Sequence record: PZ154895.1
Strand: one strand, 5' to 3'
From: a phage
Length of the DNA stretch: 64,000 bases
Below the pieces are notes generated by a model, which was not told the origin of the DNA, did not search any database, and worked only from the letters and a program-made list of their open reading frames with translations. Shown here piece by piece: positions 41,739-44,793 of this stretch (positions within the stretch are counted from its first letter, which is position 1; every line of letters starts with the position of its first letter). Position numbers and translations under genes: made by a program.

Positions 41739-42028
41739 TAATGATTCTTTATGCGAAAGTATCATCCATTGAAAATGGATATAAATATGATCAAGAAGCA
41801 GCTAAAGCCTTGATTGATGATTATGGCATTTTAACATATTTTGAAGTTGAAAAGGTTTACATTGACCGTTCATCTTCTCAAGTTAAATTAGTGAAGGAAG
41901 ATCGTAAATTTAATACAGTAAATTTTGATTTCTTTATTGAAACAGAAAAAGGTCCTCTTGAATATGATATTTTCAAGAATCCTTTGGGTCTTGAATGCAT
42001 CGTAAATATGTATTATCATAAATGGTAA
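41735..42028 (+). CDS. hypothetical protein
   Basis: 97-aa ORF overlapping upstream stop. Confidence 0.5.
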   Translation: MIMILYAKVSSIENGYKYDQEAAKALIDDYGILTYFEVEKVYIDRSSSQVKLVKEDRKFNTVNFDFFIETEKGPLEYDIFKNPLGLECIVNMYYHKW

Positions 42029-42365: not shown

Positions 42366-42411
42366 ATTTATGACTCGTCGTGAGACGCTCAGTTCTTTAT
42401 TAGGGACTGAT

Positions 42412-43020
42412 ATGCATTTTTATCTTTATAAAATAACAAATAAAATTAATAATAAAATTTATATTGGTGTGCATTCTACCGAAAATTTAGATGATGGATA
42501 TATGGGTTCTGGTAAATTATTAAAAAGAGCCCAAGACAAGTATGGTATAGAAAATTTTTCTAAAGAAATATTAGAGTATTTTGATGATAAAGAATCTATG
42601 CTTGAAGCCGAGAAAAATATTGTTACAGAAGAGTTTTTAAATAGACCAGATGTGTATAATTTAAAACTTGGCGGTGAAGGTGGATGGGACCACATAAATA
42701 ATTATCCTATGACAGATCAGCAACGCGAATTAATTTCATTGGGTGTTAAAAAGGCACATTCTAACGGAAAATTAAAAGGATGGTCTTCAAATGGATTAAT
42801 GAAGAATGGCTTTGCTGGTAAAACTCATTCTCAAGAAGCTAAACGTAAAATAGCAAAAGCAAACGAAGCAAAAGTTTCTGCGGATGAAAGAAAAAGAAGA
42901 ATAGAAATTTCTAAATTATATGATTTTTCTAAGCGTGGTGAATTATCTAAATATGCTAAGCATATTGGCGTAAGTCATACTCAAGCAAAAAGAATTCTAA
43001 ATCAAATTAACAATATATAA
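42412..43020 (+). CDS. segB: GIY-YIG homing endonuclease SegB (alternative start 42370)
   Basis: GIY-YIG motif HFYLYKITNKINNKIYIGVH; embedded in the tRNA cluster as in T4. Confidence 0.75.
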   Translation: MHFYLYKITNKINNKIYIGVHSTENLDDGYMGSGKLLKRAQDKYGIENFSKEILEYFDDKESMLEAEKNIVTEEFLNRPDVYNLKLGGEGGWDHINNYPMTDQQRELISLGVKKAHSNGKLKGWSSNGLMKNGFAGKTHSQEAKRKIAKANEAKVSADERKRRIEISKLYDFSKRGELSKYAKHIGVSHTQAKRILNQINNI

Positions 43021-43026
43021 ATATTT

Positions 43027-43544: not shown

Positions 43545-43895
43545 ATGAAAGGTAATGTTTATTTAGTAGTTCATGATTTAACATTCTATTTTAATCACAA
43601 TGACACTGTTATTTCTGAACGTGTAATTAATTTGCTTTATCAGCATGCAGATTATGTTTATGTCGAAAACGAATATGGTCATTGGCAATTTCTCAAAAAT
43701 CGTTCATTTGGTTTAGATGGTTACGAATACTTTGAACGTAAAGACCTTTTAGATAAAATTCCGTTATCTACACAATATCAAAATCATAAGTCTTTACATA
43801 AATGCCGTCAAATTCGAAATGCTGAATCTGCGTATGAAGCAATTGATTTATGGCGTAAACGCCGTGAACAGATTGATGCTTTAAAAGAATACTAA
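43545..43895 (+). CDS. hypothetical protein
   Basis: 116-aa ORF starting 17 nt after tRNA-Arg with GAGGA SD. Confidence 0.5.
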   Translation: MKGNVYLVVHDLTFYFNHNDTVISERVINLLYQHADYVYVENEYGHWQFLKNRSFGLDGYEYFERKDLLDKIPLSTQYQNHKSLHKCRQIRNAESAYEAIDLWRKRREQIDALKEY

Positions 43896-44229
43896 GAAAC
43901 CGGGTAGCTACCGGTAAGTCGTCGGACTGATGTTCCCTGCGTAAGGACTGGTCTTAATAAATCTTTACGATTTGTTAATATCCCCTTACATCACAGCAGA
44001 AACGGCGCACCGAATTATCGATTCGAGGAAATATCTTTGCCGTAAGCCGAGTAGCGTTTTTGACGGAACGTTCGGATATGGTCGAGATATGGCCTTTTAA
44101 AAATATTGAGTAGCGTCAACTGCTTAATAACCGGGTTCGAATCCCGGCGTTTCGTACAAACACTTGCCTTAGCAGGTGGAACCCCGACAAGGTTGCCGCA
44201 AGGCTTAGCCCCAACCGAAAGGTTGGGGC
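43896..44229 (+). ncRNA. structured small-RNA locus (T4 rnaC/rnaD-like species 1 and 2 candidate)
   Basis: about 330 nt without a credible ORF, tRNA T-arm-like CCGGGTTCGAATCCCGG, ends in a strong intrinsic terminator; T4 has stable RNAs at the equivalent position. Confidence 0.35.
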
Positions 44230-44234
44230 TTTTT
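44208..44234 (+). terminator. intrinsic terminator ending the structured-RNA locus
   Basis: hairpin gccccaacc-gaaa-ggttggggc followed by TTTTT. Confidence 0.75.
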
Positions 44235-44236
44235 AG

Positions 44237-44244
44237 TATAAATA
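44237..44244 (+). promoter_or_regulatory. late promoter TATAAATA for the CTS gene at 44285
   Basis: exact motif about 40 nt upstream of the ATG. Confidence 0.55.
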
Positions 44245-44284
44245 TAGTAGTATATTAAATCTACGAATTAAAACAGGAAATAAG

Positions 44285-44758
44285 ATGAAATCATATGCTC
44301 AATTTTTAAATGAAGCGGTGTTAAATGAAGCATCTAGCACCGAAATTCAAGCTGTCGCAAAAGCAGCCATTGCAGCGGGTAAATATTCCTATAAAGATGC
44401 TTCTGACGAATCACGATTCCAATTTGCTCGCGACATGAAAGCAGAAGGATTTACGGGAAATGCGGTTAGTATGGCCTGGAAAAGTTTAGTTGCTACTGGT
44501 GCTGCTTTTGCAAAGGCTTCGGGTAAACCTGCTCCTAAAGCAGATCCTAAAGCTACACAAGAAAAAAATATTGTTAAAGGAATTATCGCTAAGTATGAAG
44601 CTATCCTTAAAGAGCTTTTAGTAATCAAAACCGAAGGCCAAAAGTTAGCCCGTGCCTATAGTTTCAAAGATAATCCACATGTTCACTCTCTTGAGTATGT
44701 TGAAGACATCCAAAAAATTATTAAAGACCGCATTTGGTCTGCTAAACAAATCAAATAA
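44285..44758 (+). CDS. internal-protein-like CTS-bearing protein
   Basis: 157 aa; N-terminus MKSYAQFLNE|AVLNE|A with two L-x-E protease-type sites; own late promoter and terminator. Confidence 0.55.
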   Translation: MKSYAQFLNEAVLNEASSTEIQAVAKAAIAAGKYSYKDASDESRFQFARDMKAEGFTGNAVSMAWKSLVATGAAFAKASGKPAPKADPKATQEKNIVKGIIAKYEAILKELLVIKTEGQKLARAYSFKDNPHVHSLEYVEDIQKIIKDRIWSAKQIK

Positions 44759-44766
44759 CATTCTTA

Positions 44767-44793
44767 ACCCCGACCAAAAGGTTGGGGCTTTTT
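44767..44793 (+). terminator. intrinsic terminator after the CTS gene
   Basis: hairpin ccccgacc-aaaa-ggttgggg followed by T-run. Confidence 0.7.

Follow-up and report, generated by a model that had tools for sequence, protein, structure and literature searches.

The non-coding interval at positions 43896 to 44234 of a 64,000-nucleotide (nt) stretch of phage DNA (sequence record PZ154895.1, the whole of which we call the window) is the promoter-distal end of the transfer RNA (tRNA) operon of a T2/T4-type phage (Tequatrovirus). Alignment identifies it as the site of the orthologues of two T4 genes, rnaD (species 2 RNA, ~120 nt) and rnaC (species 1 RNA, ~139 nt), and thus as an already known element. 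Species 1 and species 2 RNAs have been known in phage T4 since the 1970s; the T4 RNAs, RNAC and RNAD, have been assigned to the late class, and a northern blot made with an RNAC probe is reported (PMC9697503). The genes themselves are therefore not new, while the covariation-supported model of rnaC presented here is new with respect to Rfam and the literature examined. Taken jointly, the identity of the two RNAs and the biogenesis outlined below seem very likely to us.

The interval recurs in 806 of the 50,697 phage records searched with blastn, nearly all of them T4-like phages of enterobacteria, and the annotated matches (T4, RB10, Kha5h, and T2L) carry the labels rnaC and rnaD. The interval aligns collinearly with T4 (NC_000866), RB10, and Kha5h at a mean column identity of 95%, which places the T4 counterparts at 71053-71171 (rnaD) and 70908-71046 (rnaC) of NC_000866. 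The window copy of rnaC is 98.6% identical to that of T4 over 141 nt, its full length, with two substitutions only, and the identity of rnaD is 86.6% to T4 and 67.8% to T2L. The tRNA-cluster record of T2L has the same layout as the window, namely, tRNA-Arg, a 351-nt open reading frame (ORF) named 'trna.2', rnaD overlapping the stop of this ORF, and rnaC, and the order of tRNAs, rnaC, and terminator on one strand is shared by T4, RB10, Kha5h, and T2L. Based on this identical layout and on the T4 alignment, a first-pass annotation of the window, which had proposed stable RNAs of the rnaC/rnaD type beside the tRNAs, was correct, since the copies of T4, RB10, Kha5h, and T2L align column by column as direct orthologues.

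The structural details given in that annotation could be found as well. The hairpin ccgggtagctaccgg lies exactly at 43900-43914 and corresponds to hairpin P1 of rnaD, and the tRNA-like T-arm CCGGGTTCGAATCCCGG is present at 44131-44147, 2 nt to the left of where it had been placed (~44133-44149), and belongs to rnaC. The intrinsic terminator said to close the interval is there, as a 10-base-pair (bp) stem at 44207-44230 followed by TTTTT. The interval folds better than expected, with z-scores of −6.49 for 43892-44240 and −4.55 for 44018-44156 (0 shuffles fold as well), and −1.98 for the rnaD stretch, 43892-44012. The Rfam (Infernal) scan proposed there found no family in the interval at the gathering score and, at E values up to 10, only weak matches at chance level (tRNA-Sec, isrK, anti-hemB, and terminator-only matches). 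The features of the two RNAs and of the operon end are as follows.

43892-44012, + strand: rnaD (species 2 RNA) orthologue, with coordinates set by its annotated counterparts in RB10 and T2L and by the alignment to T4
43899-43915, + strand: hairpin P1 of rnaD, a 5-bp stem from A43899-U43915 to G43903-C43911 with the 7-nt loop GUAGCUA
43918-43924 (GUCGUCG) with 44003-44010 (CGGCG(C)AC), + strand: closing helix of rnaD in the RNAalifold consensus
43938-43993, + strand: central arm of rnaD with a hypervariable tip and covarying basal pairs
44013-44017, + strand: 5-nt spacer AAUUA between rnaD and rnaC
44018-44156, + strand: rnaC (species 1 RNA) orthologue, a tRNA-shaped four-way junction, with a U-N-C-A tail that reaches 44158
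44019-44025 (CGAUUCG) with 44148-44154 (CGUUUCG), + strand: acceptor-like stem of rnaC, 7 bp
44022-44023 opposite 44150-44151, + strand: tandem U.U in the middle of the acceptor-like stem
44026-44095, + strand: arm 1 of rnaC, in the D-arm position, with a 3-bp base AGG/CCU, an internal loop A12 A13 / G74 G75, and a hairpin of ~22 bp
44060-44065, + strand: apical loop UUGACG of arm 1, complementary to 44114-44119
44104-44129, + strand: arm 2 of rnaC, in the anticodon-arm position, with a 10-bp stem and the 6-nt loop CGUCAA (44114-44119)
44131-44147, + strand: T-arm of rnaC, CCGGG-UUCGAAU-CCCGG, directly adjoining the 3' strand of the acceptor stem
44161-44178, + strand: trailer hairpin CACUUGC-CUUA-GCAGGUG, kept in Tequatrovirus and Dhakavirus
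44207-44235, + strand: intrinsic terminator of the tRNA-operon transcript (stem 44207-44230, then TTTTT)

The model of rnaC is based on 22 distinct homologues from Tequatrovirus, Mosigvirus, Kanagawavirus, Moonvirus, Karamvirus, Tegunavirus, Gelderlandvirus, Winklervirus, Marfavirus, and unclassified IMG/VR contigs. In IMG/VR, a first pattern scan was too loose and gave mostly chance matches, and two tighter patterns yielded 18 and then 4 more true homologues; a metagenome scan for rnaC added only two extra Marfavirus-type copies and one chance match. The length of the RNA is nearly constant, at 140 to 143 nt up to and including the conserved CA, and the minimum-free-energy fold of the window copy is a four-way junction. 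When its 53 pairs are laid on the alignment of the 22 sequences, 90.9% of the cells are paired, compared with 80.4% in shuffles and ~39% with slid partners. The covariance analysis with homologues that the first-pass annotation had put forward shows changes on both sides in 31 of the 53 pairs, a number reached by 0 of 500 shuffles.

Compensatory changes were present in every helix. The third pair of the acceptor stem alternates between A-U and G-C (8 versus 14 sequences), and the T-arm, paired in 100% of the sequences, has two of its five pairs changed on both sides, with the variants CCUGG/CCAGG, CUUGG/CCAAG, and CCAGG/CCUGG of CCGGG/CCCGG. The two non-tRNA arms are also rich in such changes: in arm 1 they affect 14 of 20 pairs plus 4 of the 5 apical ones, with the AGG/CCU base invariant, and in arm 2 they affect 8 of 10. 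The tandem U.U is kept in 21 of the 22 sequences and is replaced by U-A and C-G pairs only in fHe-Yen9-01. The tail that follows the acceptor stem is conserved as U-N-C-A (UACA in the window, UCCA in the Marfavirus type only). Both the tandem U.U and this tail are conserved features that are unusual for a tRNA helix. A covariance model built from the 22 sequences (R1), among them that of the window, finds one copy in the window, at 44018-44158, with 157.5 bits.

The loops of both arms, UUGACG (44060-44065) and CGUCAA (44114-44119), are exact complements of each other and can form six standard pairs in 22 of 22 sequences, with compensatory variants in Tegunavirus (UUGAUG/CAUCAA) and in Marfavirus and related contigs (UUGGCG/CGCCAA). 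The stems presenting these loops covary themselves, so judging from the alignment, the hairpins are real and the contact between arm 1 and arm 2 is a loop-loop (kissing) pairing. This pairing may take place within one molecule or between molecules, either locking the fold or joining molecules. A particular case is Klebsiella phage VPA32 (within 628-770), in which the tip of arm 1 is complementary to arm 2 over as many as 15 nt (AAAGUAGUUGACGCU with AGCGUCAACUACUUU) and a pseudoknot-free fold favours the long-range helix. The tops of both hairpins are mutually reverse complementary in this phage, which suggests that they form a long-range helix instead or that they arose by inverted duplication.

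In rnaC, as in canonical tRNA, a 7-bp acceptor stem abuts a T-arm with a GTTCRANYC loop, and there is covariation in both helices. In contrast to canonical tRNA, the loop of arm 2 has 6 nt, ARAGORN called no tRNA or transfer-messenger RNA (tmRNA) within the interval, and neither RF00005 nor any Rfam tmRNA model gave a hit there; the best Rfam hit in the interval, tRNA-Sec, scored 16.6 bits against a cutoff of 47. The encoded tail is not CCA in 19 of the 22 sequences. Model R1 matches ordinary bacterial tRNAs from end to end, and weakly, at ~20 bits (at most 23.5 bits). A scan of bacterial genomes returned only chance hits anchored on the T-arms of ordinary tRNAs, all of them tRNA-sized and none above 23.5 bits with R1, so these hits provide no evidence of a cellular homologue. 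Regarding the long hairpin of arm 1, G75 and C121 of the T-loop are invariant, and G74 changes to C only in the two sequences in which U120 of the T-loop changes to G. This covariation comes from one or two evolutionary events, so we treat it as a hint that the hairpin may be an insertion in a D-loop that keeps a G18/G19-type contact with the T-loop, as in the tRNA elbow.

In phages of five other genera, among them Moonvirus, Karamvirus, Gelderlandvirus, and Winklervirus, rnaC sits between two tRNA genes, 4 to 8 nt after the CCA of the upstream one and 2 to 8 nt before the next. Phages with rnaC in such a tRNA slot are Moon, Pet-CM3-4, Melville, Virsaitis27, VPA32, and CW742. The tRNA that precedes rnaC in other genera has, after its CCA, a spacer like the AAUUA of the window (AAUUA, AACAA, or AAUAA). 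As rnaC is wedged between tRNA genes in those genera, its ends there must come from the enzymes that mature tRNAs.

Other tRNA-like sequences were seen in the vicinity of rnaC. Erwinia phage Virsaitis27 has an unannotated one directly 5' of rnaC (626-700), with the acceptor pairing GGGAGUU...AGCUCCCACCA and an atypical T-loop, AUCGUUA. In Klebsiella phage F48 (~440-495), and also in L152, L153, L160, and L162, rnaC of the Marfavirus type is preceded by an element of ~55 nt (AAGGGGUGGAAAUAUCUUCAGG...CCCACUCCA), the ends of which are able to pair like an acceptor stem and the 3' end of which is CCA; from its sequence, it may be an rnaD analogue or a mini tRNA-like RNA. The record of Escherichia phage vB_EcoM_G2133 labels part of rnaC (551-644) as 'tRNA-Lys(ttt)'. 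We considered rnaC as a mimic of tRNA-Lys for this label and for a CUUUUAA run and ruled it out, since the run is not conserved outside Tequatrovirus.

The second RNA, rnaD, follows a different pattern. In an alignment of 13 distinct sequences, the first 48 nt at the 5' end and the last 25 nt at the 3' end are nearly invariant and match T4, and the gene lies directly upstream of rnaC. The RNAalifold consensus leaves 97.4% of the cells paired, compared with 92.7% in shuffles. In hairpin P1, the closing pair changes from A-U to G-C in 3 of the 13 sequences and to G-U in 1 of the 13, and the other pairs are invariant and 100% paired. The closing helix is invariant in all 13 sequences, so covariation neither supports nor contradicts it. 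The central arm, on the other hand, exists in three versions with unrelated tips (the T4/window type, the T2 type, and the dhaeg/L137 type), with four of eight basal pairs changed on both sides. Prompted by the ...CACCA end of rnaD in T4, we also considered a tRNA-like fold for it and rejected this, as we found no acceptor/T-arm geometry and the consensus is a 5' hairpin and a long irregular stem; the 3' end reads ...CACCG in the window and ...CACCA in T4 and RB10.

In the window, rnaD does not abut tRNA-Arg, because the ORF of 116 amino acids (aa) lies between them, as in T2L, where rnaD is annotated as putative; in T4 the gap is 1 nt. From the sequence, the missing abutment is a known layout variant and gives no ground for excluding the gene as rnaD. 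The 5' boundary of rnaD in the window, as in T2L, is inferred by homology only. The only functional hint that we found concerns this RNA, as the T4-like phage BW1, evolved on host ECOR34, acquired the same single rnaD single-nucleotide polymorphism (SNP) in all three lines (PMC12685909). Conserved ends, a rapidly replaced arm, and a convergent SNP together suggest a host-specific interaction of rnaD.

From these data we can outline how the two RNAs might be made and what rnaC might do. According to the T4 literature, both would be released from the long precursor transcribed from the tRNA operon and build up as stable RNAs. From its anatomy, rnaC would be excised and stabilised because it mimics a tRNA, the 7-bp acceptor-like stem on the T-arm forming a 12-bp minihelix of the kind that RNase P and the 3'-trimming enzymes would recognise as a substrate. 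The loop of the 3-bp analogue of the D-stem would carry the hairpin insertion of ~60 nt and keep a GG that may contact the T-loop. The 10-bp arm, with its 6-nt loop and no anticodon, would take the place of the anticodon arm, and the 6-bp loop-loop pairing would lock the fold or join molecules. With a 3' tail of UACA and not NCCA, rnaC is probably not aminoacylated, and lacking both an anticodon loop and CCA, it would be no decoder, so that its activity would be carried by the conserved non-tRNA arms and the loop-loop pairing. Our best guess, to which we give somewhat less than an even chance, has rnaC working in trans: it would be a tRNA mimic that cannot be charged and that binds or titrates some host or phage factor recognising tRNAs. 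Such a factor could be an enzyme that processes or modifies tRNAs or a defence nuclease that targets them, and a mimic of this type would fit the use of phage tRNAs in escaping such nucleases. A wider version seems doubtful to us, although it is conceivable: rnaC would be a distinct, uncatalogued class of phage tRNA mimics, spread over about ten T4-like genera, forming loop-paired dimers or rings or a compact monomer and serving as a decoy or sponge, with rnaD as a second, host-specific module.

Several points weigh against this proposal and the biogenesis behind it. The annotated 5' end of T4 rnaC (U1) is 1 nt upstream of the RNase P cut expected for a 7-bp acceptor stem, and the T-loop is non-canonical in two lineages, CIP9 and Virsaitis27, so recognition specific for the T-loop cannot be universal. 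Standing apart from tRNA-Arg, unlike in T4, rnaD must have its 5' end made differently in the window. The geometry of an intramolecular kiss between an arm of ~22 bp and one of 10 bp is not obvious. The decoy idea is without direct support, and the UUUU run resembling the anticodon loop of tRNA-Lys is not conserved outside Tequatrovirus. T4 tolerates deletion of its tRNA region on laboratory hosts, hence any role would be conditional. Literature searches that included p2Sp1, decoy roles, and Hfq links found no functional study, and the roles of both RNAs were described as unknown in 2010, 2022, and 2025 (PMC3014915, PMC9697503, and PMC12685909, respectively), in agreement with the first-pass annotation, which had left the function of such RNAs open.

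Records with at least 99% identity make up 491 of 751 for rnaC, compared with 5 of 735 for rnaD. Escherichia phage dhaeg, a Dhakavirus (L011, 897-1095), has rnaD together with the trailer hairpin and the terminator and precisely lacks rnaC, the 3' end of rnaD (...GCGCACCGAA) continuing straight into CACUUGCC..., which suggests that rnaC is a tRNA-like cassette that can be inserted or deleted. With dhaeg having rnaD without rnaC and most other genera having rnaC without rnaD, the two are therefore independent modules. This distribution means that neither RNA is universally required, and it has to be counted in favour of the main rival interpretation, in which both would be relics or processing spacers, that is, degenerate tRNA genes persisting through their structure and, at most, aiding the maturation of neighbouring tRNAs. 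This would also explain why rnaC is tRNA-shaped and occupies tRNA slots, and why 50 years have passed with no function known. We nevertheless consider it unlikely, as conservation is much stronger in rnaC than in its flanks, to judge from the counts above, and a relic is not expected to have non-tRNA arms and a loop-loop pairing rich in compensatory change. Furthermore, in Tequatrovirus the terminator comes after rnaC with no other gene between them, so that no tRNA follows whose maturation rnaC could aid.

Another interpretation, that rnaC is a functional adaptor, aminoacylatable in the manner of a tRNA or tmRNA and entering the ribosome, appears very improbable. It could draw on the acceptor/T-arm minihelix and on the tail, which is UCCA in the Marfavirus-type homologues and one substitution away (UACA) in the others. 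Yet the 6-nt loop in the anticodon position, where an adaptor should have one of 7 nt, is wholly taken up by the loop-loop pairing, there is neither a tag reading frame nor a G3.U70 pair, and the tail differs from CCA in all but 3 of the 22 sequences. The silence of ARAGORN on tRNA and tmRNA, together with Rfam models of both below threshold, argues against it as well.

As for the transcription unit, ARAGORN places nine tRNA genes of the window between 42126 and 43528, all on the + strand, with all features of the locus on the same strand, in the order tRNA-Arg, 116-aa ORF, rnaD, 5-nt spacer, rnaC, trailer, and terminator. Some 340 nt without a credible ORF extend 3' of the 116-aa ORF and are closed by the terminator, whose 10-bp stem with seven G-C pairs, GAAA loop, and TTTTT are those of an intrinsic (Rho-independent) terminator; one is annotated at the corresponding site in Kha5h and G2133. 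The trailer between rnaC and the terminator measures 50 nt, and its hairpin shows no covariation, the sole change being one G-C to G-U. In T4, transcription stops 3' of the species I gene, and the eight tRNAs derive from the same single primary transcript as species I and II (PMC2330249).

The 116-aa ORF (43545-43895, + strand) belongs to phrog_3355, of unknown function, and has the size and position of 'trna.2' (351 nt) of T2L. Its stop, TAA (43893-43895), is overlapped by the inferred 5' end of rnaD. It is not present in T4 and RB10, where rnaD starts 1 nt after tRNA-Arg. A Pfam search of both ORFs flanking the interval gave no match, and PHROGs gave only families of unknown function. Farther upstream, a 216-aa ORF for a GIY-YIG homing endonuclease (42370-43020, + strand; Pfam GIY-YIG, SegE_GIY-YIG, and NUMOD3; phrog_314) lies between tRNA-Gly and tRNA-Ser, and tRNA-Pro, which occupies this gap in T4, RB10, Kha5h, and T2L, was not found in the window.

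The T4 late-promoter consensus TATAAATA occurs three times on the + strand of the locus: 5' of the tRNA cluster (41780-41787), just 5' of tRNA-Ser within the end of the endonuclease ORF (43016-43023), and immediately 3' of the terminator (44237-44244). The copy at 43016-43023 might account for why rnaC and rnaD accumulate late. We also noticed that the terminator of the next gene (CCCCGACCAAAAGGTTGGGG, 44768-44787, + strand) is almost identical to the sequence at 44207-44230 and that the rnaC trailer, at ~44181-44196, repeats part of the terminator (AACCCCGACAAGGTTG).

The position of the interval upstream of a 157-aa gene (44285-44758) would allow it to be a cis-acting leader or attenuator of this gene, and a partial copy of the terminator arms in the trailer (AACCCCGACAAGGUUG) could in principle compete with the folding of the terminator. 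We find this highly improbable, since the strong terminator (44207-44235) and the separate late-promoter consensus at 44237-44244 stand between the interval and the gene; moreover, other genes (e.8) come after these RNAs in T4 and RB10, and tRNAs come after rnaC in other genera. Even less credible is that the interval encodes small proteins from its ORFs of 32 to 50 aa (43972-44100, 44106-44258, and others on the opposite strand), for which the 'hypothetical protein' annotations of many GenBank records might speak, as every such ORF starts with TTG (in line with the first-pass annotation, which had seen no credible ORF between the 116-aa gene and the terminator), the single-base indels (rnaC, 140 to 143 nt) and paired compensatory substitutions are the signature of an RNA, and curated records annotate the region as RNA. 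Public annotation of the locus is inconsistent in general, with mostly no feature and many 'hypothetical protein' coding sequences over rnaC and rnaD.

Few phage non-coding RNAs have been known for as long as these two, and neither has an Rfam family. The model of rnaC offers handles for mutagenesis (the insertion at the D-loop position, the tandem U.U, the U-N-C-A tail, and the covarying loop-loop pairing) and suggests a possible tRNA mimicry against host defences directed at tRNAs.

Compared with its closest relatives, the window copy of rnaC is the same gene as in T4, with the same position at the end of the operon, strand, trailer, and terminator, and its rnaD shares with those of T4 and T2L the conserved ends and the position 5' of rnaC and differs from them in the variable central arm. 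With canonical tRNAs, rnaC shares the 7-bp acceptor on a 5-bp T-stem, the loop UUCGAAU, the four-way junction, the slot between tRNAs, and possibly contacts of the G18/G19 type with the T-loop. It differs from them in having a hairpin of ~60 nt for most of the D-loop, a 10-bp arm without an anticodon, the tandem U.U, and the UACA tail. Non-decoding RNAs that reuse the acceptor/T-arm shape include the tRNA-like domain of tmRNA, the tRNA-like module of the bacterial Y RNA YrlA, and mascRNA, some of which are processed by tRNA enzymes. Unlike tmRNA, rnaC has no tag ORF and no series of pseudoknots, and unlike YrlA, it ends in an acceptor stem and not in a Ro-binding helix. For the loop-loop pairing, the nearest pattern is that of the phi29 packaging RNA (pRNA), in which two complementary loops that covary across related phages pair between molecules to form a ring on the packaging motor. 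To our knowledge, T4 packaging needs no RNA. Like pRNA, rnaC has two complementary, covarying loops in one RNA, but there is no sequence or fold relationship between the two.

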